Shown in pieces: positions 4,108 to 62,770 of a stretch of 64,000 nucleotides of DNA. Made by a program: the position numbers and the translations under genes. The notes beneath the pieces were generated by a model, which searched no databases, was not told the DNA's origin, and saw nothing but the letters and a program-made list of their open reading frames with translations. Location of the stretch: the NCBI GenBank assembly GCA_020241125.1, contig GCA_020241125.1_4708.1; one strand, given 5' to 3'. Source of the stretch: a phage. The first letter of the stretch is position 1; every line of letters begins with the position of its first letter.

Positions 4108-4139
4108 CATCCTCCCAACCCGTAAGGGAAGGGAGGATG
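4108..4139. terminator. conserved two-tier hairpin, family copy 1 (bidirectional)
   Basis: CATCCTCCC-AACCC-GTAA-GGG-AA-GGGAGGATG between convergent genes 3795-4103 and 4157-4786. Confidence 0.7.
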
Positions 4140-7507: not shown

Positions 7508-9964
7508 TTAAATAATCGTGACGTGTTCGTTATATGTTTCAGGGAGAATGATGTTCGTTTTATCAAGAACCATACACTCGGCTTTACGGAATGATGCATG
7601 GTTGATCACATAGTGACTGATGAACCACACCTGGCTTACGCGGTGACCATCAACCAGACGACGAACAAAATCCATGGCATTAGATTGGTGCTGCGGATCA
7701 AATGTTGATGCGAATTCATCTAACATCAACGGATAATCCGTAAACCCCTTGTAATGCATCATCGCGATGATGAACGCGATATTGATAATTTCCTTTTGTC
7801 CCTTACTCCCATAAACAATATCTTTTCGCGGTGTCGGATACTTCTCAGTTAAAAGCGGAAAACGATAGTTCAATCCTTGCGCGTCGATAGCACACGGGAG
7901 TATCTGAAGTTGGTATTCCCAAATACTCGCAATGATGCCGTTCATGTACTCAACGAACGCGTTGATGGGACCCGCAATTGTTTCGGCAATCAGTCCGTTG
8001 GATGGACTCAACTCATCCAGAACAAGTTGTGCGTAACTGAGCTGTTCTTCCACCTCTTTTTGTGTCGTTTCCAACTGAGCCAGAAGCTGCTGGTCGGTTT
8101 TAGCTTCCTGTAGTTGCTGTTCGACATGACTTATTCGGCGAACTGTATCAGACATCGCAGCACGTAACGATTTCGTGTAGAGGTGTTGCAGATACTCTAA
8201 CCACAGTTGCGTTAACGCTTTATCGCTGTTATCAGAACGTACCTGATCTTCCATAATCGCCGTAATGGTTTCCAATCTACCTTCCGTAGCTGTGATGGCT
8301 TGTGTTAACCGCTCAACGGTTGTTAACAACTCTGTCCTGTTCTTATAAAGCAATTCTCGACGTTGCTGTAACGGTTCAACATCAACCGCTTGTACACGTT
8401 CGAGCATGCCTTGAAGATGTTTACGTTCTTGTTCGGCTTGTGTATAACGTGCGAGTTTCTCGAATGCAAGCAACCAATCATTAATGATTCCAATGCTGCG
8501 GAATCCTAATCCGTTTTTACGTCCTTCTTCCAGCAGATTGTCCCACATGGGTTTAATGGCGTAATAATCCTTCGTCCAACGTGTTAACTGACGATGTTGT
8601 TCCATCCAGAGCGTATAACGCTGAACCTTCTCGCTAAGCTCAGCTAACGATTTCTCTTGTTCTTCAACCCAAGCACGGCCTTTCTGAATGCGTTGTTCAA
8701 TACTCGCTTTGCTGGTCTTTTCCGTTTCACCAACATGAAAGCGATAATTGCATTTTGGACAGCTGGTCTGGGGTTGATGATTCAGATGGTCGAGATGCGC
8801 TTCCAAATCGGCTAACGCATGTTTCGCGTTACGCAAACGCATTCTTGCTGCCTCTTCCTCCTTGATGTAAGCTTCAGCATCGTAAACATGATAGGTGTTG
8901 TCGGTATCAATCCATTCTTGCAATAGTTCCGTTAACGGAGCCTGAACTTGTGTGAGCTGTTGTAAACAAACCGCAGCGTCCAGATTCATCGTTAAAAGCT
9001 CACCTGGATGATCTTGCTGAAGTTGTTCGTCCAAACATGCAATGCGGGCTTTAATTTGATCGATATCACCTTCGCCAGACTGTTTCAACTGGTCAAGGAT
9101 ATTATCGATACCCAACAGCTCGTCAACCTGACTTTCGAGTTTTGCATTCGCATTCGCGAGTTGCTCTCTTAGTTCAGCCAGATTCTGCTGTTCTTGTTGC
9201 GATGTTCCTCCTTGGTAACGAACAACCGCACGAAGAAGCTCGCGATTAAAATGATGGGCACGTTGTGCGGATTCCAGAAGCTGTCGTTGATCAACATCGC
9301 TATCGAATAACGGCAATCCCATCATCGCTTCGAGCGCTGAGCGTTGCTGTTTTAACTCTGCTTCCAATCCCTGGTGGTCGGTGCCCGTGTATTTCGCTTC
9401 AATGCGCTGTGATGTTTCAACCAACTTATTCAGTGTATGCTCATTCACCGCTTTCAGTGAACGTACTTGTTGCTTAACAACCTGAAACAACTCGAGCGCA
9501 TAATCGACGTTAACCGGACATATCTGTGTTAATCGTTCGCGGCGTTTCATCGGTCCCATTTCGGTGAACTGATAAGCCGTTTCGTAACCTAGCAACAAAC
9601 GAATGGTGTCATCATTAAGTTCGAAATGTTCTTCAATCAGTTTCCATTGGGCCGGTTGTGTGCCACCACCGTTCAGGTTCTCGCTGTCGTTAACGTAGAA
9701 CTCATGCTTAAACCCTTTTTCTAAACGACTGATAAGACGGTATTGCTTATTACGGTGTTCGCAGCGGTACTCGTAATACCCGTCTTTATCAAAATCAGCA
9801 CGCTCAGGAACGGTCGGATACAGCAAAGGCAATAGACTACTCTTACCGGAACCATTACTGCCTAAAATGAGTTGTACGGGATTATCTGGCCGGATGACCA
9901 GCTCCCGAATCATCCCGGTATCAAAACGATTGAATCCACGTAAGTGGAGATAGGTGCATCGCAT
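7508..9964 (-). CDS. SbcC/Rad50-like SMC-type ATPase
   Basis: Walker A LILGSNGSGKSSLL, long central heptad-rich region with CPKCNYRF (CxxC zinc-hook-like), C-terminal GSKGQKE signature-like and LMLDEFAST Walker B; ATG 9964 with AAGGA RBS (ORF track start 10000 is GTG). Confidence 0.8.
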   Translation of the reverse strand: MRCTYLHLRGFNRFDTGMIRELVIRPDNPVQLILGSNGSGKSSLLPLLYPTVPERADFDKDGYYEYRCEHRNKQYRLISRLEKGFKHEFYVNDSENLNGGGTQPAQWKLIEEHFELNDDTIRLLLGYETAYQFTEMGPMKRRERLTQICPVNVDYALELFQVVKQQVRSLKAVNEHTLNKLVETSQRIEAKYTGTDHQGLEAELKQQRSALEAMMGLPLFDSDVDQRQLLESAQRAHHFNRELLRAVVRYQGGTSQQEQQNLAELREQLANANAKLESQVDELLGIDNILDQLKQSGEGDIDQIKARIACLDEQLQQDHPGELLTMNLDAAVCLQQLTQVQAPLTELLQEWIDTDNTYHVYDAEAYIKEEEAARMRLRNAKHALADLEAHLDHLNHQPQTSCPKCNYRFHVGETEKTSKASIEQRIQKGRAWVEEQEKSLAELSEKVQRYTLWMEQHRQLTRWTKDYYAIKPMWDNLLEEGRKNGLGFRSIGIINDWLLAFEKLARYTQAEQERKHLQGMLERVQAVDVEPLQQRRELLYKNRTELLTTVERLTQAITATEGRLETITAIMEDQVRSDNSDKALTQLWLEYLQHLYTKSLRAAMSDTVRRISHVEQQLQEAKTDQQLLAQLETTQKEVEEQLSYAQLVLDELSPSNGLIAETIAGPINAFVEYMNGIIASIWEYQLQILPCAIDAQGLNYRFPLLTEKYPTPRKDIVYGSKGQKEIINIAFIIAMMHYKGFTDYPLMLDEFASTFDPQHQSNAMDFVRRLVDGHRVSQVWFISHYVINHASFRKAECMVLDKTNIILPETYNEHVTII

Positions 9965-15811: not shown

Positions 15812-15846
15812 CCTTCCCCCGACCCGTAAGGGAAGGAGGAAGGGAG
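15812..15846 (-). terminator. conserved hairpin, family copy 3
   Basis: CCTTCCCCCGACCC-GTAA-GGGAAGGAGGAAGGG, 9 nt 3' of the stop of 15855-16748. Confidence 0.65.
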
Positions 15847-27757: not shown

Positions 27758-27767
27758 CCAAACATAA

Positions 27768-27799
27768 CCCTCCTCCAACCCGTAAGGGAAGGAGGAGGG
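27768..27799. terminator. conserved hairpin, family copy 4 (bidirectional)
   Basis: CCCTCCTCC-AACCC-GTAA-GGG-AA-GGAGGAGGG between convergent genes 26477-27757 and 27809-28714. Confidence 0.7.
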
Positions 27800-27808
27800 A
27801 ATATGCTG

Positions 27809-39849: not shown

Positions 39850-41646
39850 TCAATCGATTATGTCGTGATCGTTAATTTCTACAATTTCTTCATCGAATCG
39901 ACCGACGTCTTTCTTCAAGCCTGCATTGGTTGCTGCAACGTCATTTGCAATTTGTGGGGTAATGATTAACCGACCGCGCTCATCGATAGGTGCGTACATA
40001 CTGAACTTCTGACGTCCGGTTGGTTCGGAGTGTGGAAGATTCAGATAGCTTGCACAGAACGGGATGGAACCACTAACCAAACGACTCTCGTCAGCCAATG
40101 CAGCACCGCCTGCGTTTTGGCTCTGGAGAACAACATGCGTGCTCACTTTGAACAGCATGCAATCACCTGGTGACTGAATCGATGTTGCCACTTTCTCACG
40201 TTTATCACGATTGCTCTGGATATTGAGAATCGCTTCCGTTGCAACTTGATTTCGCAACGCCTTCTGTACATCGCGATTGGTCATCTCTTTACGGTTGTTC
40301 TGTCGTTTACCACGTTCTGTGGTTTTAAGATGGAACCCCAGTTTAAAGATGCTCTTACGCACATCCTCCATGACATATTCCAACACCATCAATTCCTTAC
40401 CGAACATCGTCGTGGTATCAACACGACTCATTTCGATAGTGACATTGTCAATCAGATACGCCATAAATTCGTAGAAGTCGTCGCAAGGAATATTTTCCTG
40501 TTTGAACTTCTTCTGCTGAATCTCGTCAACGTAAAGATCGAGACTGTCGATGTGGTGATTTACATCACGTAACAAACGCGCATCCGCGTTGTTGTTATTA
40601 AAGATAATCAAACCGAGTAATGTACGCCAATGGTCTGGCGCATTCGCGAACTCCTCAACCGGATAGTCTTCCGGAAAACGATCGTAATAACGGTCGATGA
40701 GATACAAGAATGCACCGACAAGGCCAAGAACAATACGTTCCGTGCCTCCGCGTCTTACAGCAATTTGAATATCAGGATGTTTGTAACGTACAGCGCTAGC
40801 GCTACGGCTTTTACCGCTTTTGCTGATACTAAAGCCTTTAGGAATAACCCCCATGGTGCGATAGATTACCCATTGGTCACGCGGAAAATCGCGTTCAGCA
40901 AGGTTCCGTCCGGTTACGGCTTCGACACCTGCAAAACGTCGGAAACACTCACCCACCCCATACTTCGCAAAGAGATAGTGACCCAGTGTGGTTACGCTGG
41001 TGTGGTTGATGTTGTCACCGTTCACTTTACTTTGTTTAGTAAGATGGTAGATTTGCGACCAGGGTAACGACAGGTAATGACGATAATCGATACCGGTCGG
41101 TGTATCATTGCTCAGGAACTGATACGGTGTACGTTTAACCGTGATTTTGTCACGCGGAAGCATGATGAACGCCATGTCTTTCGTGTAACTGATTACCGGG
41201 TCAGCGAGCACTGCACTGAGAATGAAGTTCGCACCACGTAGACGCATTTTACCACCCTGACCTACCGCGGGTAATAGGAGAGGATGTCGGATAATGCAGT
41301 AGTCCTTTCCGGGTTCACGACGGTCACCTGATTCCATCGCGCCGTACCAGCGGAATTCTAGCATCACCATAAACACATCGGATGGCGCAAGGTCGAAGGT
41401 CAGCTTACCGCTATCCTTCCCTTTGGTTTTCTTTCCTCCGCTTAAGTAGTGGAACTGTTCGCGGGCCATACAGCGACGCAGGCCATGATACACCAGATCC
41501 TTAGGTAAACTATCTTTGCTGTTCCGCCAAAGACGATCAACATAGGACTCAACATCTTGCATCTTATCGACGACGATGTTGCGTGCTATCTTCTCGTTCA
41601 TCTTCGGTGCAAGCCCAGCGACAGCTTTGCAGAATCTAGGATCCAT
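39850..41646 (-). CDS. hypothetical virion-module protein (598 aa)
   Basis: ORF 39850-41649 begins with GTG; ATG 41646 with AAGGAG RBS. Confidence 0.75.
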   Translation of the reverse strand: MDPRFCKAVAGLAPKMNEKIARNIVVDKMQDVESYVDRLWRNSKDSLPKDLVYHGLRRCMAREQFHYLSGGKKTKGKDSGKLTFDLAPSDVFMVMLEFRWYGAMESGDRREPGKDYCIIRHPLLLPAVGQGGKMRLRGANFILSAVLADPVISYTKDMAFIMLPRDKITVKRTPYQFLSNDTPTGIDYRHYLSLPWSQIYHLTKQSKVNGDNINHTSVTTLGHYLFAKYGVGECFRRFAGVEAVTGRNLAERDFPRDQWVIYRTMGVIPKGFSISKSGKSRSASAVRYKHPDIQIAVRRGGTERIVLGLVGAFLYLIDRYYDRFPEDYPVEEFANAPDHWRTLLGLIIFNNNNADARLLRDVNHHIDSLDLYVDEIQQKKFKQENIPCDDFYEFMAYLIDNVTIEMSRVDTTTMFGKELMVLEYVMEDVRKSIFKLGFHLKTTERGKRQNNRKEMTNRDVQKALRNQVATEAILNIQSNRDKREKVATSIQSPGDCMLFKVSTHVVLQSQNAGGAALADESRLVSGSIPFCASYLNLPHSEPTGRQKFSMYAPIDERGRLIITPQIANDVAATNAGLKKDVGRFDEEIVEINDHDIID

Positions 41647-41685
41647 CACACACTCCTTTCAGAAAGTTGCTTAAGCAGATTAAAG

Positions 41686-43128
41686 TTACTTTTTCGATGA
41701 CACTTTCTCAAGAATCTTGAAAAAGGTCATACCTATACCGACAACGGCCGCGGTTATGCTCGCAGCGGCTTTCCAAACATCGACGTTACGTTGACGTCGC
41801 GCTTCTTCCGCTTCACGTTGTCTTTTTGCCTCTTCATCACGTCGACGTATCTCAGCAGCAAACTCGTCGTGCTTACGTTTGGATTCTTCGTCTCGACGAC
41901 GAAGTTCAGCGACGAATTCTTCATGTTTGCGTTTAGCCTCGTCGTCACGACGTTTTAAATCAGCTTGATAATCTTCGTGTATTTGTCTACGTAGATCATC
42001 TTGACGCTTCATTTCGGCTTGGTGTTGTTCCATCCTACGTTTTTGTTCGTCTTTAAGCTGATCGAGTTCGGCTTTATGTTGTTCATCACGCAGCTTTGCG
42101 TCGGCGCGATGCGCCTCATGCATCTGTGCGATAACTGCCTTGTGTTCATCCGCCATACGTCGCATTTCAGCCATCACCCCTTTAAGGGTTTCTTCTGATG
42201 CCTTACGTTCGTAGCTACGTTGGTCGAAATCATTTTTGTAGGCTTCTTTTTGGATGGGGTCGCGCCAATGCAATGCCGATTCACGTGTCGGAAAAACATT
42301 GTACTTCCACATCTCTTTTTCCAAATCTTCGACCGGTACGAAGATGGAGTCATTATTCCCGAAGGTAACCAACATACCTGGCGCGCCTGCTCCATTCGTT
42401 GGTTTTATTTCGAACGCTTTCCCCAACACGTTAACCCATAAGCTATACGGATTATGAAAGTCGGGCGGCGTCCAATGGATAGTGAGTTGCGTTCCGAGAA
42501 TCCGGAAACCCTCTGTTTTTCCCGTCAAGCTCCGCGCGCACGTTGCGATGTAGGGGTGATCAATCCCTTTCGTAACGTGGTCTGCGCTTTTGTATTCTCC
42601 TTTAACTTTTACGATTGCCACGTTGATTTGCGCGACATAAGCGGGTTGATTAAAGTTCAGCGTGTTGAGGTCAATTTGACATATCTCATCCAGCGTATCG
42701 TACCAGTCTTGCTGGTCTAATAGACGCGGCATTTTCTCAGCGTTAACAATACGACGGATATGCGGTTTCCTTATCGCGTAACCTGTACCGTTTTTAACAC
42801 GGAGTATATCCCGACGTCTACCCGCGTAGACGAAGTTTCTGAATGCACCATTCGCATTAGATACGTCATGGCTGTCAACTATTACAGGACTACGAAATTT
42901 TGAACGTCGTACGATCCTGAATGTATTGCCGTCCTCAACCCTACCAGGAATGTACTGGAACATATTGTCGGAGGTGATAACCAACACGGTATGGCCAGAT
43001 TCATTAATACATGCCCATCCTAATTCCAGGTCATATAACGGTTCAGCATAACCGTCAATGCGATAAGCGTGCGTACCATCCCACGGTTCGAACGCGGTAT
43101 CACATATTGGCATGGAGGGCATCGTCAA
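41686..43128 (-). CDS. protein with C-terminal charged coiled-coil repeats and terminal TM helix (480 aa)
   Basis: GGAGG RBS; C-terminus has RRRDEEAKRKHEEF-type repeats then AAASITAAVVGIGMTFF. Confidence 0.75.
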   Translation of the reverse strand: MTMPSMPICDTAFEPWDGTHAYRIDGYAEPLYDLELGWACINESGHTVLVITSDNMFQYIPGRVEDGNTFRIVRRSKFRSPVIVDSHDVSNANGAFRNFVYAGRRRDILRVKNGTGYAIRKPHIRRIVNAEKMPRLLDQQDWYDTLDEICQIDLNTLNFNQPAYVAQINVAIVKVKGEYKSADHVTKGIDHPYIATCARSLTGKTEGFRILGTQLTIHWTPPDFHNPYSLWVNVLGKAFEIKPTNGAGAPGMLVTFGNNDSIFVPVEDLEKEMWKYNVFPTRESALHWRDPIQKEAYKNDFDQRSYERKASEETLKGVMAEMRRMADEHKAVIAQMHEAHRADAKLRDEQHKAELDQLKDEQKRRMEQHQAEMKRQDDLRRQIHEDYQADLKRRDDEAKRKHEEFVAELRRRDEESKRKHDEFAAEIRRRDEEAKRQREAEEARRQRNVDVWKAAASITAAVVGIGMTFFKILEKVSSKK

Positions 43129-43271
43129 CCTCCATCAGATTGAAAACTATCACGCATAATACATTTCCCTTTTCTTGTTCTTATCGAGCCGACAGCCGAC
43201 GGTTTCAGCATCGTTCCTAGCGCGAGAACGACCTTACGTGTTGTCTATGCCTTATTCATCGCAGGCGTCTG

Positions 43272-43287
43272 TCACCTAGGTAATGTA
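43272..43287 (-). promoter_or_regulatory. conserved 16-mer TCACCTAGGTAATGTA (candidate promoter or operator)
   Basis: Exact repeat of 51447-51462; about 145 nt upstream of the start at 43128, just after a family hairpin. Confidence 0.4.
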
Positions 43288-43330
43288 AGCGTCAAATTTT
43301 TTCTATTCGCAACAATAAACGGCATAGAAA

Positions 43331-43360
43331 CCTCCCCCAACCCTTGCGGGCTGAGGGAGG
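43331..43360 (-). terminator. conserved hairpin, family copy 6 (variant loop), 3' of the capsid candidate
   Basis: CCTCCC-CCAA-CCC-TTGC-GGG-CTGA-GGGAGG. Confidence 0.6.
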
Positions 43361-43459
43361 CTGACTTATGTATCACGGTGCCGGATGAATGTCCGGTGCA
43401 ATGAAACCATCCGCAACGTTGTCGTCAAGAATATCATCCAACGAAGCAGCTACGGTAGT

Positions 43460-45682
43460 TCAGTTAGTCTGAACAGGCAGCTTGATGTTTTCAGTGTAGA
43501 CCTTACGCAGGTTCACAACGTTAATCAGACCCAGCAGCGGGCAGTTGTTAACGAAGCGGCAGCGCGGCTGAACCATGGTTTCTTTAGAAACCTGACCGTT
43601 ACGGGTAACCTGAGCAACAGATACCAGTTCCGGTACATACAGGAACATACCGAAGGTCAGCGGATCCGGAGAACCCTGGATACCACGAGACAGGGTCACG
43701 AAGATCTTATCGCGCAGCATGACGTTCGGGTTATCTACAACTACGAAGTTGAAGCTTACACCAACGGTACGGAAATCACCATCGGTCTGCAGGAACTGCG
43801 GGATGTAGTTGTCAGTTGCTACTACGCAACGCGGTTTCTCATCAGCGTTGGAAGACAGCAGCTGCAGAGCTGGCTGATAACCAGACTCGGAGTACATGCG
43901 GTATGCCATCTCACGAATCACGTTCATGATCGCAGCAGACACTTCAGCACGACGTTCTGCAGTGGTGGTACCCTGAACAGATTTCTCCAGGTCCAGATTG
44001 ATTTCTTCGAACCACGGACGGATCAGGTAACGACCGAAACCTTCGATCTGGATGTCACCGAACTGACGGAAGCGAGAGGTCGCAACCGCTTTCAGTGCGT
44101 CTTTGTAGCTGAACAGTTTCTCAACCATCAGGTTGTCGAAACGTGCGTTAGCAGCTTGGATCAGAACGTCCAGGTCAGCAGCGTTTTCTTCCCAATCCAG
44201 CGGACGAGGAATGGAGAACGGAGCCAGCAGGCCGATTGCGTAACGTTCTTGCTTCATGTTGAAGTCAAGGTGCTTACCGCGCTCACGACGGTTGCTGTTG
44301 TTACGGCGGATACGCAGTTCGTAACCAACCAGTTTGAAGCTCAGGTCTTCAGCCAGTTGTTTGAACTCTTCGCTCTTACGCGGTTGTTCGATGTTGTCCT
44401 GATCAACCAGGCGATACAGTTCAGCGTTAGCGCCGTTAACACGCAGACCGGCTTTCTCTACGTTGGAAGAACCGTAAACTTCGATCGCCAGCTGAGCAGC
44501 AGATTTCGCATCGATGATGTCCTGCAGCGCTTCAGCTTTCGCGCCTTTAACGTCTTTGGTGTTCTCATCAACGAAGATGGAGTGGGTGTCGAACGCCAGG
44601 GTCATTTTGCGGAAGTCGCCTTCCAGGGATTTCTGGAAACCGTTGGTGATCAGACCAGATACGTCGAACGGTACGTAAGAGGTTTTGCTGTGCTTGGTAG
44701 ATTTGATTTCCACCAGGATTTTGGTCAGCGTGATCTGGGCGTCCAGCGCGTCGGTGTTGTCGCTGTAACCGTTAGCCAGGATGCTATCGTCTTCAGCAAT
44801 ACCGATCATGTCGATCAGTTTATCAACAGCCAGGTAAGACGTTTTGTAAGTTACGCCTTTAATTTCGATGTCGCGCGGAGCAACGATAGCTTTGTCAACG
44901 AAGTACTGTGCGTTAGCATCGTCAGCACGATAGATCGGATGCAGATCGGTCACGTCGTTGGACAGAACGTCGTTGTACATGAACGCATCCAGCAGCGGAC
45001 GACGTACCCAATCAGCCGGAGTACCGTCAGCGTTACGACGCAGGTGGTTGAACACCAGCGGACGACGGAAAGATACGTCGTAACCGATCTGGTTCGGAGC
45101 CAGAACGATGGTGTTGTACAGTTCGTTACCCATGCGGCTCAGACGAGAAGCCTTCACGTTGAACACAACGGAGTACGGCATCATGTCACGCAGTTCTTTC
45201 TGGTCGTAGGACAGCTGAACCAGTTCTTCAGATTCGCAACCGCAGGAATCAGCAGCCATCATGACGAAGTTAGAGCTGTCAACTTCACGGCCAGACGGAG
45301 TGGTGCTGATGTTCATGGAACGTGCTTGTTTAGCATATTCTACCGGGTTACCATGAGCCAGCATGATCAGTGCTGCTGCACGAGCCTGCTGTGCGTTCAT
45401 GGTGAACAGCTGTTCTTCAATACGCTGCTTCTCTTCCGGAGTGGTGGTTTCGAAGCCCAGCATGGACAGAACCGGTTCTTCGGCTTTACGGATGTCGCTG
45501 CTGAAGCTCTTAACATCCATTTCGTTAACCAGTTTGTCCATGGATTTGAAATCAACCTTAGAAGCAGATTCCATAGACAGGAAGGTGTTCTCCAGACCTT
45601 TGTCTGCTGGTTTGCTACCATTAGCGGTCAGGAACTGGCGAGTGGCCGCGACCTGTTGGCTAAGAAGGGTTTTATCATTCAT
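43460..45682 (-). CDS. candidate major capsid protein (740 aa)
   Basis: Strongest codon optimisation in the window, so the plus-strand ORF 43385-45685 is an antisense shadow; AAAGGA RBS; size fits jumbo-phage capsid proteins (recollection, not verified). Confidence 0.6.
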   Translation of the reverse strand: MNDKTLLSQQVAATRQFLTANGSKPADKGLENTFLSMESASKVDFKSMDKLVNEMDVKSFSSDIRKAEEPVLSMLGFETTTPEEKQRIEEQLFTMNAQQARAAALIMLAHGNPVEYAKQARSMNISTTPSGREVDSSNFVMMAADSCGCESEELVQLSYDQKELRDMMPYSVVFNVKASRLSRMGNELYNTIVLAPNQIGYDVSFRRPLVFNHLRRNADGTPADWVRRPLLDAFMYNDVLSNDVTDLHPIYRADDANAQYFVDKAIVAPRDIEIKGVTYKTSYLAVDKLIDMIGIAEDDSILANGYSDNTDALDAQITLTKILVEIKSTKHSKTSYVPFDVSGLITNGFQKSLEGDFRKMTLAFDTHSIFVDENTKDVKGAKAEALQDIIDAKSAAQLAIEVYGSSNVEKAGLRVNGANAELYRLVDQDNIEQPRKSEEFKQLAEDLSFKLVGYELRIRRNNSNRRERGKHLDFNMKQERYAIGLLAPFSIPRPLDWEENAADLDVLIQAANARFDNLMVEKLFSYKDALKAVATSRFRQFGDIQIEGFGRYLIRPWFEEINLDLEKSVQGTTTAERRAEVSAAIMNVIREMAYRMYSESGYQPALQLLSSNADEKPRCVVATDNYIPQFLQTDGDFRTVGVSFNFVVVDNPNVMLRDKIFVTLSRGIQGSPDPLTFGMFLYVPELVSVAQVTRNGQVSKETMVQPRCRFVNNCPLLGLINVVNLRKVYTENIKLPVQTN

Positions 45683-45831
45683 TGAAAGTATCCTTTACAG
45701 AATTAACTTATATAAGTCGGTCGATAGACCATAGCGTACACGCGTGCATGCGCCACTATAGTATCAGTAAACACTTACCGTTATTGAGGTCGTGATACAA
45801 CACTAAAAATGCCGCATAACTTTTCCCTACG

Positions 45832-46452
45832 TCACAAACGACGCAGGCGATAATGGATGGAACGATTGGTGCAATATGAACGGAACAGCGGCAATTGCGC
45901 AACTTCCGCAAGACTCATATTAATTCGCAGGTGTTCAATAACGGCGCTGTAGTTATCAGCAATACGATCGCTCAATAACTCTTCTGCCAATAAAGGAAGA
46001 CAATCGACAACAATCGCGATCACATCCTCATTAACATAACGCACCCGAACACTCAACGGACGTTTGTCTGGGCTGTAAGTTGGATCCGCCAAACGACGTT
46101 CAATATCACGCGGATAGCTCGTCAGTAAATGGTAATAACCATTGTCATAACGATTGATGTACTCACACAGCACATCAACATTCTTCTCTGGCGGCAAACC
46201 TGTTTCGTCATAGTGATACGCAAACATACCACCAAGCAGGTTGTTAAGATGAACCGCAGGGTTCGCTTGTTCGTGTTCTTTCGTGATGAAGAAAGGCACG
46301 TTCTGGGCTGCGAAATAAAAACCTACATCATTGGGCGATAGTATGCCGAAAAGACTTTTAGGGTCTAATAACACCTGTAAGTCATCACGCGCATTTCGAA
46401 TAATCGCGTGTTCTACCCAATTCGGAACGACGAGATATCGGAGTTCCTTCAT
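45832..46452 (-). CDS. hypothetical protein (206 aa)
   Basis: ATG 46452 with AGAGG RBS; immediately upstream of the capsid candidate. Confidence 0.65.
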   Translation of the reverse strand: MKELRYLVVPNWVEHAIIRNARDDLQVLLDPKSLFGILSPNDVGFYFAAQNVPFFITKEHEQANPAVHLNNLLGGMFAYHYDETGLPPEKNVDVLCEYINRYDNGYYHLLTSYPRDIERRLADPTYSPDKRPLSVRVRYVNEDVIAIVVDCLPLLAEELLSDRIADNYSAVIEHLRINMSLAEVAQLPLFRSYCTNRSIHYRLRRL

Positions 46453-46491
46453 TATGATTACCTCTTTGCAAGTATCGAAAGGATTGAGTCG

Positions 46492-48102
46492 ATGGACCCA
46501 AAACAGATAGCCATTAAGATTATTACGTTACTGTTTCGTAATGCACAATTGAACCATCCCGATCCCAGTACGATCGAACATGTTAAATCCGTCTTAGATA
46601 AAGTCGAACCCCCGAAAAACCATCTCGCTACAGACGTAGATAGAGAGGTTTTCAACAACCTGATGAATACCATTCATTGGATGTTGGAACAACCATTATC
46701 GGAACCTTTCGATAAACAACAGTTGTTACAAAGGATACGTTTGGATTGCCTTGAACAAAGCAATCTTTACGAGATTCTTGCCGACGGACTGTACGATATC
46801 GAAGACGACGCTCATATCAGTAAGGTCTGTTCACTCTATTACAACGAATTACGTAATCTGATTACCCGTCGTCGTGTTTTCGAAACCTTTAGAAACACGT
46901 ACATGGATATCAGTAACGGGCGACTTGGGGATAAAGAATTTTTCGATGCAATGGCGAATCTGAAATTATCGCTAGACAGTATCGAAATGGATACCGAAAA
47001 TCCCGAAGAGATGTCGTGTATGATTGACGGCTTTATCGCTGACAGCGAAGACGATATCGAGAAAGTCGAACGTATGTTCGTCAAAGCGATGGAACGTAAC
47101 AGTCCTGAAGGTGGATTTGTAACCGGCTGGCAAGGCTTTAATAAAATGTTGGGGTCGGTCGGTGTTTTACGTCGCGGTACCTTAGGACTGATTGGTGCAA
47201 TGCAGCACCGGAACAAGTCAGGCGTGTTGTTAAAACTGTTCACACATCTGGCATTGTACAACAAACCCCATTTCTTTTTCCCGGAGCGAGCAAAGAAAGC
47301 ATTACTGATTCATTTGTCGACAGAAAACGAAGTGGAAGAAAACACGCTTCAGATATACAAGAACATGCGAGAACAGGAAACAGGCGAATATGTCGATATT
47401 CGTAAGATTGACCCTCGCGAGGCATCACGTTATGTGTTGAAGGTGTTCAACGATGCGGGTTTCTCTGTTTGTATGCGTCGTGTTGATGGGATGAGTTATA
47501 AACAACTCGCTAATCTCATCGACCATTTCGAACGCATGGGTTATGAAGTCATGGCGTTGTTCATTGACTATCTGAAAATGTTCTCATCGGAAGGGCTGGA
47601 TAGAAATGGACCGACCGGCGCATGGCTCCAAGAACTCTTCAACAAAGTCCGTAACCTCTGCAGTGTTAAACGTATTTTAGGCATGACCGTACACCAGCTG
47701 TCATCCGATGCGAAGATGCGTGCACGTGATGGCAACGATGAAGAGTTTGTTGACCAAGTCGCAGGTTTAAGTTACTGGGATGGTTGTAAAGGGATTGACC
47801 GTGAGATTGACCTTGAAGTGATTGTTGATATCGTTAAGGAACCGGGCAAACGTCAAAGCTGGCAAGTCTTTGCATTAGGGAAAGACCGTCAACCGGATAA
47901 CGGTTCAACGAAACCTGAAGACAAACACTTCGCAATGCCATTCCAAACCATCGGGATGCTTCCTGATGATTACGGTAAGAAAGCAGTGTATTGCCGCAAG
48001 GTTGGCGGACAACCTGTCTCCGAGGGAGGTAAAGGTCCGTGGAACAAGTTCGATGAAAACGCAGCACCGAGTAATGAATTACAATTTGATTTAGAATTTT
48101 AA
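46492..48102 (+). CDS. possible DnaB-like (SF4, RecA-fold) helicase
   Basis: ALFIDYLKMF resembles DnaB H2/Walker B (hhhhDYLQLM); degenerate Walker A-like LIGAMQHRNKSG; QLSSDAKMRAR resembles the H3 region; start taken at ATG 46492 (ORF opens at 46408). Confidence 0.45.
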   Translation: MDPKQIAIKIITLLFRNAQLNHPDPSTIEHVKSVLDKVEPPKNHLATDVDREVFNNLMNTIHWMLEQPLSEPFDKQQLLQRIRLDCLEQSNLYEILADGLYDIEDDAHISKVCSLYYNELRNLITRRRVFETFRNTYMDISNGRLGDKEFFDAMANLKLSLDSIEMDTENPEEMSCMIDGFIADSEDDIEKVERMFVKAMERNSPEGGFVTGWQGFNKMLGSVGVLRRGTLGLIGAMQHRNKSGVLLKLFTHLALYNKPHFFFPERAKKALLIHLSTENEVEENTLQIYKNMREQETGEYVDIRKIDPREASRYVLKVFNDAGFSVCMRRVDGMSYKQLANLIDHFERMGYEVMALFIDYLKMFSSEGLDRNGPTGAWLQELFNKVRNLCSVKRILGMTVHQLSSDAKMRARDGNDEEFVDQVAGLSYWDGCKGIDREIDLEVIVDIVKEPGKRQSWQVFALGKDRQPDNGSTKPEDKHFAMPFQTIGMLPDDYGKKAVYCRKVGGQPVSEGGKGPWNKFDENAAPSNELQFDLEF

Positions 48103-48106
48103 ACGC

Positions 48107-48163
48107 AAAAAAAAAAAAAGATTGTGCGGTTCCCTCCTCCAACCCGTAAGGGAAGGAGGAGGG
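48107..48163. terminator. conserved hairpin, family copy 7, with A13/T13 run
   Basis: CCCTCCTCC-AACCC-GTAA-GGG-AA-GGAGGAGGG (48132-48163) plus A13 at 48107-48119; between convergent genes. Confidence 0.75.
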
Positions 48164-48179
48164 GTTATGACCGCTTTGA

Positions 48180-48506
48180 TTAACTTATTGTCATGAATTC
48201 ATTAGGTGAAAATTTCCAGCCGTTCTCGGTGAGAAGCGTGTTGAGTTTCGCTGCAACGATAAGCCATGCGTGCATGGCTGTTACATCGTATTGGCGATTC
48301 ACTCGACGTTGGTTTTCGATATTGATTTGCTCCTGTTCAGTGATGTTTGGATAAAGTGCGATAGCGCTAGGTTTACCCAGCGCGCTAGTCATCACCGCCG
48401 TACATTCACTGATAATGTTGTTTAAGTGGTAGTTATACACCGTTCCACGCATGACGCGATGACGGCATTCGATAATAGCGTCGTAAATGATTTCTCGAGT
48501 AATCAT
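48180..48506 (-). CDS. hypothetical protein (108 aa)
   Basis: Intact ORF; followed by conserved hairpin 48132-48163 and T13 run. Confidence 0.55.
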   Translation of the reverse strand: MITREIIYDAIIECRHRVMRGTVYNYHLNNIISECTAVMTSALGKPSAIALYPNITEQEQINIENQRRVNRQYDVTAMHAWLIVAAKLNTLLTENGWKFSPNEFMTIS

Positions 48507-48512
48507 GATAAT

Positions 48513-48914
48513 TTAAAACATACGGTCGTTTTTAGCACGGGCGTCCATTACCAGATCGTAGATGCCTGCGGTTCGTAAGCACTCTTCGTAGTAACGATGT
48601 GTGCCTTCCTCAGCCATCCACGATAACCCTCGGCTATCCGCAACGATAACCAGTTTGTTATTGTTGAACGCACACACCACACGGTATGTCGCGTTGTTAT
48701 TCGGATCGCGAGTGATGAGTTCATAGACGCCGTTAACAGGTTTACTGAATTCGCCGTTTAACGGAACGAGTTCGGTAGTACCTTCAGCAAACGTTACGTT
48801 GATCGGTGATGGATCTTTAGCGATAACAGTATATTCCACATTGTGTTCTTTACTGGTCATAATACCGAAGTAAGAACTCACAGGGGAACGCGGTACACTA
48901 AGAATATTAAACAT
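48513..48914 (-). CDS. hypothetical protein (133 aa)
   Basis: ATG 48914 with AGAGGA RBS. Confidence 0.6.
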   Translation of the reverse strand: MFNILSVPRSPVSSYFGIMTSKEHNVEYTVIAKDPSPINVTFAEGTTELVPLNGEFSKPVNGVYELITRDPNNNATYRVVCAFNNNKLVIVADSRGLSWMAEEGTHRYYEECLRTAGIYDLVMDARAKNDRMF

Positions 48915-48984
48915 AAATGTTGTCCTCTTAATTGGATTTAGATTGTTGGGTATGTGATTGGGAAATGAAAACGTTGTTTCGGTT

Positions 48985-49554
48985 TTAGACGATGAGTGAC
49001 CAGGTAGTAAGCACCCCGCTTGCGAATTCGAGCTTAAGACGTTTACCGATAAGTTGTTGCTGGATCATCTTCTCGGTGATACGTCGATCATGCTGAACCG
49101 CTTTATCAAACGCTTCTTTCGCTTCAGCTTGGTAGAAGTTCGTTTCTTCGTTTTCGTCGATCTCTTCGAGAGCATCGTCGTCGATGTCAGCAAGTTTCAC
49201 TCGACCGTTTTCATCAGGTTGTTCTGCAGGTTCATTGTCATACGGCGTGTCTTTTGTTGGTGCGACACGATGTTGCAACTCGACCTGCGTTAACATGATC
49301 TCCATCTCACCATCGATAGGAATGATTTCATCGGCGCTGCCGTTTTCGGTCAACTCTCGACTTTCCAGTAATGTCGTCGTAACAGAGAACACCTCTTCAA
49401 CAGGAACCTCATCATCGTCGATAGTGTTAACCGTATTGCTGGTAACTTCGGCAACGACCATCAAATCGAATGCGTGAGGATCGCCTGGCATTTTGATTCC
49501 TGGAAGTTTGTTGAGGTACCAAGGATCGAGAATCATGATTTCTGGATTGAACAT
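48985..49554 (-). CDS. acidic hypothetical protein (189 aa)
   Basis: Intact ORF, strongly D/E-rich. Confidence 0.6.
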   Translation of the reverse strand: MFNPEIMILDPWYLNKLPGIKMPGDPHAFDLMVVAEVTSNTVNTIDDDEVPVEEVFSVTTTLLESRELTENGSADEIIPIDGEMEIMLTQVELQHRVAPTKDTPYDNEPAEQPDENGRVKLADIDDDALEEIDENEETNFYQAEAKEAFDKAVQHDRRITEKMIQQQLIGKRLKLEFASGVLTTWSLIV

Positions 49555-49629
49555 CGTTTTTACCTTTCTATGTTAGGTGGGTTGCGGATAGAAGAATCAA
49601 TGCATAGACTGATTTAAGTTTGTTAAGGT

Positions 49630-50532
49630 TTACTTAGTCTTCGAGTTACAAGGACTGACATGTTGTTGTACTCGTTGAATCGTATCGTAGTACGGGTTAG
49701 ATTGGTTGAACATGCTGTTGTGTGGATGATAGCCGTATGGCGCATTTTGCCTTGTTGATGAGAAACCTTGTTGAGAAGGACGATTTGAATTAACCGCGAG
49801 TACGTAGTAAACCAAATTTTGACGGTCGAACGTTCCTTCGTTTTTGAAGGTGTCGGCGTAGGTGTTTATCGCTGGAGCGAGTCTATCACCATCGGCGGTA
49901 ATAATTGTACCGTCTGGGTAAACTTCACGAACGACGCACCATGTTCCGATAAGAACGTCTTTGGGCGGCGTATTGCCGTATCCGGTTGTAACGGTAAGGT
50001 AAGTATCGAACCCTTCAGAACAACAAGGATGACGATAGATAGGTCCTGTCATTTCCGTTCTATCGGTATCGTCGCATTTCTCTATCGAGAGCGATGGTGT
50101 GTCGGTTTTGAAATTGTCAAATTCTTTCTTTAAGTCGATTACAGGTTCTTTCGTATAGTACTTCTTGATTGCTTTGACGTAAAGATCAGGAACGGTTGTC
50201 AGCATTCCGTTATACCTGATTCTCAGGTTTTCGAGTAATCCAAAGATACTCGCGCATGCTTGTTCGCGAGGTTTTGTAAGATAAGAGATCCCCCCAGGAA
50301 CGCTGGGATCTTTGAGAAAGAAGATTGCGTTATTGTCGTTGTGCAGTGCGTTGAAGAAAACGATTGATTCGATATATACGGAGCATAGGCTGTCGTTGGC
50401 GTCGTCAGATAACACCCAGATGCACTCATCGGTCGTCTTGTTTAAAAGTTCTGTTTTGTCCACCAAACGTTGTTTCATTGCGAGGAAATGTGCCTGTTGT
50501 TCAGCGGATAATTCACGATAAATAGTGGTCAT
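49630..50532 (-). CDS. hypothetical protein, tandem paralog of 50618-51391
   Basis: ORF 49630-50610; ATG 50532 with AAGGAG RBS; IYRHPCCSEGFDTYLTVTTGYG ... VREVYPDGTII aligns with IYIHPECHTTYDRYLTITGG ... IREIYPDGRIV. Confidence 0.7.
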   Translation of the reverse strand: MTTIYRELSAEQQAHFLAMKQRLVDKTELLNKTTDECIWVLSDDANDSLCSVYIESIVFFNALHNDNNAIFFLKDPSVPGGISYLTKPREQACASIFGLLENLRIRYNGMLTTVPDLYVKAIKKYYTKEPVIDLKKEFDNFKTDTPSLSIEKCDDTDRTEMTGPIYRHPCCSEGFDTYLTVTTGYGNTPPKDVLIGTWCVVREVYPDGTIITADGDRLAPAINTYADTFKNEGTFDRQNLVYYVLAVNSNRPSQQGFSSTRQNAPYGYHPHNSMFNQSNPYYDTIQRVQQHVSPCNSKTK

Positions 50533-50617
50533 GTTGAGCTCCTTGATTACGATAAGGATGATTGCGGTTTTGTGATGCTGGTAGGGCCCTAAACAAAGGA
50601 GCCCTACCAATATTGGG

Positions 50618-51391
50618 TTACTCAGGATCGGCGTAGAAATGGTGAGGATAGCCGGAGTACGATCCCGCGTTACCGGCTATGGATTCTTTCTGGGAATCGA
50701 CGACGAGCGCATAGAACTGTCGGGAATTTGTTAGCGTTGAGAAATAAGCGGAAAGGACTTTTTCATTCAACGCATCGCAAGGTAGACAGGTGCGACCGCA
50801 AAACGTCACGATACGGCCGTCGGGATAGATCTCACGAATCATTCTCCACTCACCGATATCCACTGGTGATGGCGCTGCTACACCACCTGTTATCGTTAAG
50901 TAACGATCGTACGTGGTATGGCATTCAGGATGAATATAGATCGGCTTGTTCGTTTCGACAGGTTCCGAAGTATCTCGACGACTAAGAAGCTCAACGACTT
51001 CAAGATAAATCGTTGGTAGATCGCGGAGAATACCGGTGCTACGACGTTTCTTTGTGATTCGCGGACGAATCTCGTTGAGAGCGTATTCGAGCTTACGTTC
51101 AGCTTCGTACGCATCGAGTTTTATCAGGCGACCCGGTTCATCGGAATGATCCTGAGTTACGTAAACGAAATACGCGTTGCCTTTTGCAGCGTGAAAGATT
51201 CGAGCGACCTTAAATGTTTCTACGGTACGATACCCAAGGCGCGATTGATTTTCCACAGGAGAAAATATCCAATGTCGTCCTTCGTCCGCCTCAACAATTT
51301 CGTTGAAACTATCCGTTTGTTCTGGGACCTGGTAGTCAGCCATTAATGTATCAAGAGCGTCGTCAGCCAGTTTGATGTAAATATCTGTCAT
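50618..51391 (-). CDS. hypothetical protein, tandem paralog of 49630-50532
   Basis: ORF 50618-51604; ATG 51391 with GAGGAT RBS; promoter-like motif and inverted repeat just upstream. Confidence 0.7.
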   Translation of the reverse strand: MTDIYIKLADDALDTLMADYQVPEQTDSFNEIVEADEGRHWIFSPVENQSRLGYRTVETFKVARIFHAAKGNAYFVYVTQDHSDEPGRLIKLDAYEAERKLEYALNEIRPRITKKRRSTGILRDLPTIYLEVVELLSRRDTSEPVETNKPIYIHPECHTTYDRYLTITGGVAAPSPVDIGEWRMIREIYPDGRIVTFCGRTCLPCDALNEKVLSAYFSTLTNSRQFYALVVDSQKESIAGNAGSYSGYPHHFYADPE

Positions 51392-51424
51392 GTTTGTATC
51401 CTCGGCTATTAAGAGAAATTTACA

Positions 51425-51462
51425 GTGATAACAGTAACCGTTGTTATCACCTAGGTAATGTA
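51425..51462 (-). promoter_or_regulatory. conserved 16-mer plus adjacent 9-bp inverted repeat
   Basis: GTGATAACA-n8-TGTTATCAC (51425-51450) overlapping TCACCTAGGTAATGTA (51447-51462); about 35-70 nt upstream of ATG 51391. Confidence 0.4.
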
Positions 51463-51495
51463 GTCGCGAAATAAACTGGGTTAGACAGTATATGA

Positions 51496-51527
51496 CCCTC
51501 TCCCAACCCGTAAGGGAAGGGAGAGGG
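51496..51527 (-). terminator. conserved hairpin, family copy 8
   Basis: CCCTCTCCC-AACCC-GTAA-GGG-AA-GGGAGAGGG, 5 nt 3' of the stop of 51532-52899. Confidence 0.7.
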
Positions 51528-51531
51528 AATA

Positions 51532-52899
51532 TTAAACGGTTGGACGAACAGTATTGTCTTTTTCTGGTGCAATCCATAACGTGACTGTACCATGGCATGT
51601 CCACTGCGGTTCACGCACAGAAGAACCTGCCATTGTAACAGCGCAATCGGTACGCATGATAACCCCGTATGCTTCGCAGAGATTGTTATCCTGCATCCAC
51701 ACAACTTTAGCGGGCATGCCAGGATACAACAAATCCATGTTTGCGTATTCCCACACCAACTGCATCGTTCTACCGCGTAATCCGGCAGTATTGCTTAATT
51801 CACGCCATCGGTTATCGGTTACGCGTCCCATCCCTTTCGCCACTTTCACGTTATCGCTACGTTCTTCAGTTACGTACTCGCTAACGTTTACGGTACGACT
51901 GATGATCGTATCACCCCCTTTTGATAATGTCATTCCCTGACTCATCTGACTTGCCGAAACAAAACGCCCACCCGCATTACCTAACAACGAAGCCGCGTTA
52001 TTGATGTCGCTTACCGACGCCCCTCTCGTACACGCAATTTCCACGTATTTGTCACGATTGATCCAGGTCTTGTCCATGCCCGGAAACATATCGGCAGGAT
52101 AGTTGTAAAAGATCGCCGTGCGCCGACCGTCAGAGAAACGGGTTTCGTCGTATAAGGGGTAGATATACAGATACGGGGATTGATAATAACAACCGACGTC
52201 AGCTGAATAAATACCGACCTGGTTCTGTATTTTATCTACGAGATCCATCGCATTGGTACCGTGTGGAAGAATAAGCAACTTGAATGGGTTGTCGTTATTC
52301 GGTGCAACAATATCCACACCCTGCATTTTGAATCCGGTGTCAGCTTCAACCGCAGAAAGTATCTTGCTGAATTCAAGTCGCAGTACATCCAGCACTTTCG
52401 ACCCAGTATAGTTCTCACCGGTTTCTGATTGCATGAAGCTTTCAAGAACAGGATCGAACAGTTGAAATTGAAGATCGACCATTTGTTCGTAGTCTTTCTT
52501 CGAAGAATCGGTTGCGGTACGTTCGTCGGTAGCGGACATACGACTGTCTACGGTTGTTAAACAAACCGCTCGGTAGACGTAAGCTTGTGCGGCATCGTCT
52601 ACGGTTTGGCGTTGTCCGCGCATCAGGCTGTACGCCTGCACGATGATGCGCATTTTAAGTTGTTGTTGGTACGGTAGAATGTATTTTCCGTAACTGCCGG
52701 GCGGGAACTTTACAGAGATATAGAGTTCATCTCCAGCGTTACGTTCATAGTCTCGATACGTGTGGACTTGAGTCACTAAAGGAACAGACACCGTCATTGA
52801 CGGCGTGATTAATTCCGCGGTGACTTTATACGCAACAGCAACTGCTTCCTGCGCAAATGTACCGATATACCGTCCTAACGGCGTCTGTTTGTAATCCAT
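51532..52899 (-). CDS. hypothetical virion-module protein (455 aa)
   Basis: Intact ORF with ATG 52899; followed by conserved hairpin 51496-51527. Confidence 0.75.
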   Translation of the reverse strand: MDYKQTPLGRYIGTFAQEAVAVAYKVTAELITPSMTVSVPLVTQVHTYRDYERNAGDELYISVKFPPGSYGKYILPYQQQLKMRIIVQAYSLMRGQRQTVDDAAQAYVYRAVCLTTVDSRMSATDERTATDSSKKDYEQMVDLQFQLFDPVLESFMQSETGENYTGSKVLDVLRLEFSKILSAVEADTGFKMQGVDIVAPNNDNPFKLLILPHGTNAMDLVDKIQNQVGIYSADVGCYYQSPYLYIYPLYDETRFSDGRRTAIFYNYPADMFPGMDKTWINRDKYVEIACTRGASVSDINNAASLLGNAGGRFVSASQMSQGMTLSKGGDTIISRTVNVSEYVTEERSDNVKVAKGMGRVTDNRWRELSNTAGLRGRTMQLVWEYANMDLLYPGMPAKVVWMQDNNLCEAYGVIMRTDCAVTMAGSSVREPQWTCHGTVTLWIAPEKDNTVRPTV

Positions 52900-62728: not shown

Positions 62729-62760
62729 CCTTCCTCCAACCCAACAGGGAAGGAGGAAGG
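62729..62760 (-). terminator. conserved hairpin, family copy 9
   Basis: CCTTCCTCC-AACCC-AACA-GGG-AA-GGAGGAAGG, 3' of 62771-63922. Confidence 0.7.
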
Positions 62761-62770
62761 GATATAGTGG

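Follow-up and report, generated by a model that had tools for sequence, protein, structure and literature searches.

What kind of ATPase is encoded on the plus strand at this locus, opposite to the head genes that surround it, is the question addressed here. The window, i.e., the whole stretch of phage DNA that was analysed, is 64,000 nucleotides long. The original prediction was a DnaB-like helicase with a degenerate nucleotide-binding motif, for which a replicative helicase, a divergent or inactive relative and a packaging-related RecA-fold ATPase were all considered and which was likened to an inserted cassette. By sequence comparison, the gene is identified as the already known DnaB-like replicative helicase of nucleus-forming jumbo phages (Chimalliviridae, phiKZ-like). 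This gene is needed in explaining how these phages copy their DNA and, as a core marker gene of Chimalliviridae, has been used in published phylogenies. Its RefSeq name, its Pfam family, the deviant motif, its place in a conserved block of the core genome and the nuclear localisation of an orthologue were in print beforehand, leaving the published picture unchanged. The additions made here are minor: counts of the glycine replacement, the alignment of K464 and R466, the lack of detectable similarity to the DnaB N-terminal domain (NTD) and a conserved acidic-aromatic tail.

The open reading frame as called mechanically ran from GTG 46408 to the stop codon at 48100-48102 on the plus strand. The first residue of every homologue corresponds to the one encoded at 46492 (MDPKQI...), and the GTG start would make the gene overlap its divergent neighbour, which ends at 46452; ATG 46492 was therefore preferred, and coordinates 46492-48102 are right. 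An AGGA sequence lies approximately 10 nt 5′ of this ATG. The sequence elements ALFIDYLKMF and LIGAMQHRNKSG, on which the helicase assignment had been based, were both found in the translation, and the three neighbouring genes are on the minus strand, as had been stated (Table 1).

Table 1. Positions in the window of the helicase gene, its motifs and the surrounding elements.
Feature	Position	Strand	Remarks
Major capsid protein (MCP) gene (phiKZ gp120 type)	43460..45682	-	Anchor of conserved block; Pfam PF25620 PhiKZ_MCP, E=5e-218; PHROG 3231
Divergent 206-aa neighbour gene	45832..46452	-	Positional counterpart of phiKZ gp119 and RAY gp316
Helicase CDS	46492..48102	+	536 aa; ATG 46492, stop 48100-48102; orthologue of Goslar gp043, phiKZ gp118, 201phi2-1 gp197, RAY gp315
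N-terminal all-helical region	46492..46992	+	aa 1-167; predicted
Linker helix ahead of RecA core	47047..47097	+	aa 186-202; predicted; preceded by a poorly modelled stretch
RecA-like ATPase core	47104..48036	+	aa about 205-515
Deviant Walker A / H1, AMQHRNKS	47197..47220	+	aa 236-243; K242 invariant; N241 at Gly position of GK[ST]
E278, H1a catalytic glutamate	47323..47325	+	STEN aligned to DnaB SLEM (FSLEM)
D359-Y360, Walker B / H2	47566..47571	+	FIDYLKM vs DnaB IDYLQLM; Y 163/164
H401-Q402, H3 sensor	47692..47697	+	HQLS vs DnaB SQLN/SQLS (HQLSS vs SQLNR); H 149/164
K464-D465-R466, arginine finger	47881..47889	+	GKDR vs E. coli DnaB K440-Q441-R442 (GKQRNG)
Acidic-aromatic C-terminal tail (predicted disordered), WNKFDENAAPSNELQFDLEF	48040..48099	+	Last 20 residues; pLDDT below 50; preceded by Gly-rich linker
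Stable hairpin, convergent helicase (+) / 108-aa gene (-) junction	48126..48174		Core 48132-48163, 30 nt past helicase stop
108-aa gene	48180..48506	-	Convergent with helicase
Hairpin copies	about 4109-4139, 15813-15845, 27767-27800, 48132-48163, 51497-51527, 62730-62765		All in same orientation

The encoded protein was identical to Goslar gp043 (YP_009820728.1; RefSeq product name "DnaB-like replicative helicase") at 534 of 536 positions (99.6%), the two substitutions being conservative, and megablast with region 40000-52000 returned Escherichia phage vB_EcoM_Goslar as its sole match (97.9% over 85% of the query). Pfam family PF20307 divDNAB ("Divergent DnaB-like ATPase") was matched with E=1.4e-120 over profile positions 3-355 of 356, the score of 402.7 bits exceeding the gathering cut-off of 26, and 22 of 22 aligned relatives matched this family too. 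Similarly, PHROG 3213 (DnaB-like replicative helicase) matched over the full length (E=1.2e-122). Using tblastn, full-length homologues of ~30-35% identity were found in 282 phage records; among the 40 records listed, all were phiKZ-like jumbo phages, with Pseudomonas, Erwinia, Salmonella, Ralstonia, Xanthomonas and others as hosts. When 1.84 billion representative proteins were searched exhaustively by HMM, 655 clusters were assigned to this divergent family at E<=1e-30, and the best 150 matches were nearly all 500-520 aa long and aligned end to end. Conservation in the family was counted on 164 full-length representatives sharing <=50% identity.

The window protein resembles the divDNAB members Goslar gp043, phiKZ gp118, 201phi2-1 gp197, EL gp76 and RAY gp315 in length class, motifs and genomic position, with a full-length match. 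The Goslar clade has an Asn in place of the family-typical Tyr or Phe before the P-loop Lys and a tail that is ~20 aa longer and ends in DLEF. In three oversized relatives of 560-640 aa (P0145, P0159 and P0036), either low-complexity acidic insertions follow YN[LM]P, right behind the Walker A helix, or the C-terminus is prolonged by a long acidic stretch. Inteins are frequent in bacterial DnaB; in these three proteins, neither an intein nor an endonuclease domain was found.

Similarity to canonical DnaB emerged at the level of profiles. No PDB chain stood out from noise in a single-sequence phmmer search (E>=0.12), and Pfam DnaB_C (PF03796) did not match the window protein at E<=1, its threshold thus not being reached; seven of the 22 relatives matched PF03796 weakly (best E=2.9e-7), and a search of NCBIfam returned nothing relevant. 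With a profile of 22 homologues, the only significant PDB matches were DnaB chains, namely Aquifex 4nmn (E=5.5e-6) and Geobacillus 2r6a (E=4.1e-5) and 2vye (~4e-5). Alignment of the family profile with E. coli K-12 DnaB by hhalign covered 255 columns (probability 87%, E=3.7e-6) and kept every motif in register.

AlphaFold2, run on the alignment, gave a model with a mean pLDDT of 79.6. On fold comparison, this model scored 24.6 with the C-terminal domain of E. coli DnaB, 22.5 with T4 gp41, 22.4 with Aquifex DnaB, 22.0 with Twinkle and 20.5 with T7 gp4, followed by RadA (19.6) and by RAD51 paralogues, KaiC and RecA (15-18). By the model, a RecA-like ATPase core is present, and the best fold matches are all SF4 replicative helicases, in keeping with the RecA fold on which the helicase assignment had been made to depend. 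A RecA-fold motor of the RadA/Sms type, serving recombination, branch migration or some other non-replicative DNA transaction instead of the fork, was considered and judged highly improbable. Sequence profile, fold and motif alignment together support the DnaB-like helicase.

The motifs of SF4 helicases were then compared one by one with those of bacterial DnaB and T4 gp41 (PF03796). In common with these proteins, the window protein has the RecA-like core, the linker helix, the TGxxxLN motif, the H1a Glu, the DYL Walker B (H2), the QLS sensor (H3), H4 of the form (I/L)(E/D)Q(D/E)xD and the GK(Q/H)R arginine finger; H1a, H2, H3, H4 and the arginine finger all aligned to their DnaB counterparts. 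The pre-Walker A segment reads TGWQGFNKM, compared with TGYDDLNKK in E. coli DnaB (G212 in 153/164 and N217 in 152/164 representatives), and H4 reads IDREIDLE, compared with IEQDADL (D440 in 159/164, E442 in 140/164). R466 was placed on DnaB R442 by hhalign.

The difference lies in Walker A, which is A-[LM]-Q-H-x-[YFN]-K-[ST] in the window family and A-R-P-[SG]-M-G-K-T in bacterial DnaB and T4 gp41. The canonical pattern [AG]xxxxGK[ST] is not present in the window protein, which keeps the Ala, the Lys and the Ser and has Asn for Gly: GAMQHRNKSG is aligned with AARPSMGKTT of E. coli DnaB, N241 falling on the Walker A glycine G235. Ser or Thr at position 243 occurs in all 164 representatives, A236 in 146 and H239 in 144. 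The degenerate Walker A with N replacing G had thus been read correctly, and it characterises the family as a whole. The residue before the P-loop Lys is Tyr in 70 of the 164 representatives, Phe in 61, Asn in 17, Trp in seven, Gly in four and His in two; Asn is a minority residue, used by the Goslar clade.

The second glycine of Walker A is normally needed for P-loop geometry, and its replacement in 160/164 representatives (by N241 here, by Tyr or Phe in relatives) would fit a catalytically dead DnaB-like protein whose sole role is that of a scaffold or loader-like factor. The AlphaFold model points the same way, since the helix after strand 231-236 starts at residue 239 already, so that the loop is possibly not as long as in a canonical P-loop. 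On the other side, K242, E278 and D359 are each found in 164/164 representatives, Q402 in 163/164, K464 in 162/164 and R466 in 161/164. Purifying selection on each catalytic residue is unexpected in a dead enzyme, and this strict conservation of the residues that do the chemistry argues against the inactive relative that had been entertained, which we regard as very improbable. For Iyer et al. 2021 (PMC7824862), a divergent DnaB is one of the genes that define the group 1 (phiKZ-like) jumbo phages; they noted that its nucleotide-binding Walker motif is modified (their wording is "Walker B") and likewise concluded against inactivity from its intact Mg2+ site. That an SF4 helicase should work with an aromatic residue or Asn for the P-loop glycine, and with no primase partner known, is a matter of biochemistry that concerns the whole family and not this window in particular.

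Outside the core, the protein departs further from bacterial DnaB and T4 gp41, with an NTD that is not recognisably DnaB-like, an acidic-aromatic C-terminal tail and no PF03796 score. According to the model, five short helices (aa 3-99) make up the head of the N-terminal region, and behind them a long hairpin of helices spans aa 106-141 and 147-167. By hhalign, E. coli DnaB was aligned from its residue 175 on, a point just upstream of the linker helix, and no similarity between the N-terminal domain and that of DnaB was detectable. Unlike T7 gp4, the window protein has no fused primase domain; both T7 gp4 and Twinkle have a canonical Walker A. Unlike bacterial DnaB systems, these phages have no DnaG primase partner, neither a DnaG-type nor an AEP primase being recognisable in group 1 jumbo phages (PMC7824862). 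We infer that the lack of a recognisable DnaB-type NTD fits this published absence of a primase.

The last 15 aa of the 164 relatives contain an aromatic residue in 97% and carry a net negative charge in 92%. At least one aromatic residue combined with a net charge <=-2 was found in 76% of the tails, compared with 20% of internal windows. Many of the tails carry a P-[FW]-[FWY] motif, and the linker ahead of them has 13% Gly, compared with 6% overall. In E. coli SSB and in gp2.5 and gp4 of T7, acidic tails with a terminal aromatic residue serve for docking. By analogy, the helicase tail might be a docking peptide as well, its likeness to that of T7 gp4 being compositional only.

The protein is thus taken to be the core replicative helicase of Chimalliviridae, a divergent member of the DnaB/SF4 helicases that works at the phage fork in the phage nucleus, with a probability of about 0.88. 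By homology, its subunits would assemble into a ring, which is probably hexameric and would bind NTP at the subunit interfaces, each site being composed of K242/S243, E278, D359 and Q402 (with H401) of one subunit and K464/R466 of its neighbour. The ring would hydrolyse NTP in spite of the unusual P-loop, move 5′→3′ on single-stranded DNA, unwinding the genome within the phage nucleus, and act ahead of the divergent family-B DNA polymerase of the phage. Localisation has been published for the RAY orthologue only, GFP-tagged RAY gp315 being found inside the phage nucleus (Prichard et al. 2023; PMC10299810), and reviews list the phage DNA helicase as a nuclear protein (PMC12908238, PMC13282480). 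A literature search for biochemistry or structure of any divDNAB-family member, including phiKZ gp118 and 201phi2-1 gp197, found no dedicated study, and the mechanism is therefore derived from homology.

Counted against the replicative helicase were the replaced P-loop Gly, the lack of a PF03796 score, the NTD without detectable similarity to that of DnaB and the lack of a recognisable primase partner. Some of these features may be connected. On a speculative view, which we consider unlikely, the loss of the Gly (to Y/F/N), the NTD not recognisable as DnaB-like and the acidic-aromatic tail would be joint signs of a helicase adapted to a replisome that has no primase; its pocket geometry or specificity would be unlike that of all studied SF4 helicases, and the tail, instead of an NTD-primase contact, would tether it to the divergent family-B polymerase, to an SSB or to the phage RNA polymerase, which possibly does the priming.

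The location of the gene was examined in related genomes. The helicase gene is divergent from a ~200-aa gene, beyond which come the phiKZ-type MCP gene, one or two small genes and an nvRNAP subunit annotated "polymerase." This helicase-MCP block corresponds to Goslar gp039-gp043, phiKZ gp118-gp123, 201phi2-1 gp197-gp203, Erwinia phage RAY gp315-gp317 and Ralstonia phage RP12 ORF092-096, and its order and orientation are identical in all five phages, which belong to five distant genera. Prichard et al. 2023 (PMC10299810) placed the replicative helicase in core-genome block 5 and found its tree congruent with the whole-genome tree. The position of the helicase opposite the capsid-block strand thus reflects the ancestral family arrangement and not an insertion.

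A packaging-related ATPase, or a mobile cassette within the head-gene block, had been suggested by the site among virion genes, the opposite strand and the repeated flanking hairpin, and the GC content of the gene (44.1%) is slightly lower than that of the whole window (46.9%). The GC content is nevertheless inside the window's range of 0.42-0.51, and the recurrence of the helicase-gp119-MCP arrangement in five genera, the published core block 5 with its congruent tree and the occurrence of the hairpin throughout the genome, past the 3′ ends of unrelated ORFs and in related genomes, refute the cassette. No terminase large-subunit or portal-associated family or fold was matched by the helicase in Pfam, PHROG, NCBIfam or the fold comparison, and with best folds that are all SF4 replicative helicases, packaging is left unsupported as well; among the explanations weighed, this one is the most improbable.

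In BLASTP searches, the divergent 206-aa neighbour showed weak similarity to RAY gp316 (E=8e-6) and none to 201phi2-1 gp198, so that its equivalence to phiKZ gp119 is by position only. The start codons of the helicase gene and this neighbour are 39 bp apart (46453-46491); the corresponding gap is 28 bp in RAY and 128-224 bp in 201phi2-1, phiKZ and RP12. With so short a gap, the promoter of at least one of the two genes must extend into coding sequence in both the Goslar and the RAY lineage. A 766-aa stop-free frame (43385-45685, plus strand) lies antisense across the whole MCP gene; the minus-strand MCP frame is the real gene, and the plus-strand frame is most likely a by-product of codon usage.

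The hairpin downstream of the helicase had been recognised as a member of a repeated family, and this part of the claim stood; its role as a cassette boundary did not, since copies sit past the 3′ ends of unrelated ORFs. The element at 48132-48163 reads CCCTCCTCC-AA-CCC-GTAA-GGG-AA-GGAGGAGGG, with an additional outer GCGGU/ACCGC stem, and folds with -32 to -34 kcal/mol on either strand (z -5 to -5.9). On the minus strand, a U13 run follows 6 nt beyond the outer stem, and the sequence trailing it on the plus strand is likewise rich in U. Six copies of the core were found in the window, compared with 0.03 expected, all near-identical, GC-rich and conforming to CC[CT]TCC[TC]CC-AA-CCC-GTAA-GGG-AA-GG[AG]GGAGGG. 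Every copy lies roughly 5-20 nt from the stop codon of a minus-strand ORF, three of the six at convergent junctions, and U-rich sequence, often UUU(U)AUG, comes next on the minus strand. From this anatomy, the hairpins look like a family of intrinsic terminators, and the one at 48126-48174 is probably a bidirectional terminator. A sigma-70 promoter and terminator scan of 45500-49000 gave fewer sites than shuffled sequences and missed the hairpin, the T-run of which is offset; such a scan is uninformative here, these phages using their own RNA polymerases. An Rfam scan of the whole window found no RNA family.

The 18-mer of the hairpin core recurs on both strands in Goslar and in two related IMG/VR contigs. 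At the same helicase-downstream junction of IMGVR_UViG_3300045988_173921 (8895-8930), the outer arms are identical and the apical part is inverted (TTCCCTTACGGGTT compared with AACCCGTAAGGGAA); judging from the two sequences, this near-palindromic element is flipped between relatives at the helicase junction. Further downstream, a 1.77-kb segment (49614-51386) is absent from Goslar, which has 82 bp there (Goslar 49575-49656). On this segment, two ORFs of the minus strand (49630-50532 and 50618 to about 51394) are paralogues with YPDG-type motifs in common, and the hairpin copy at 51497-51527 lies ~110 bp past its edge.
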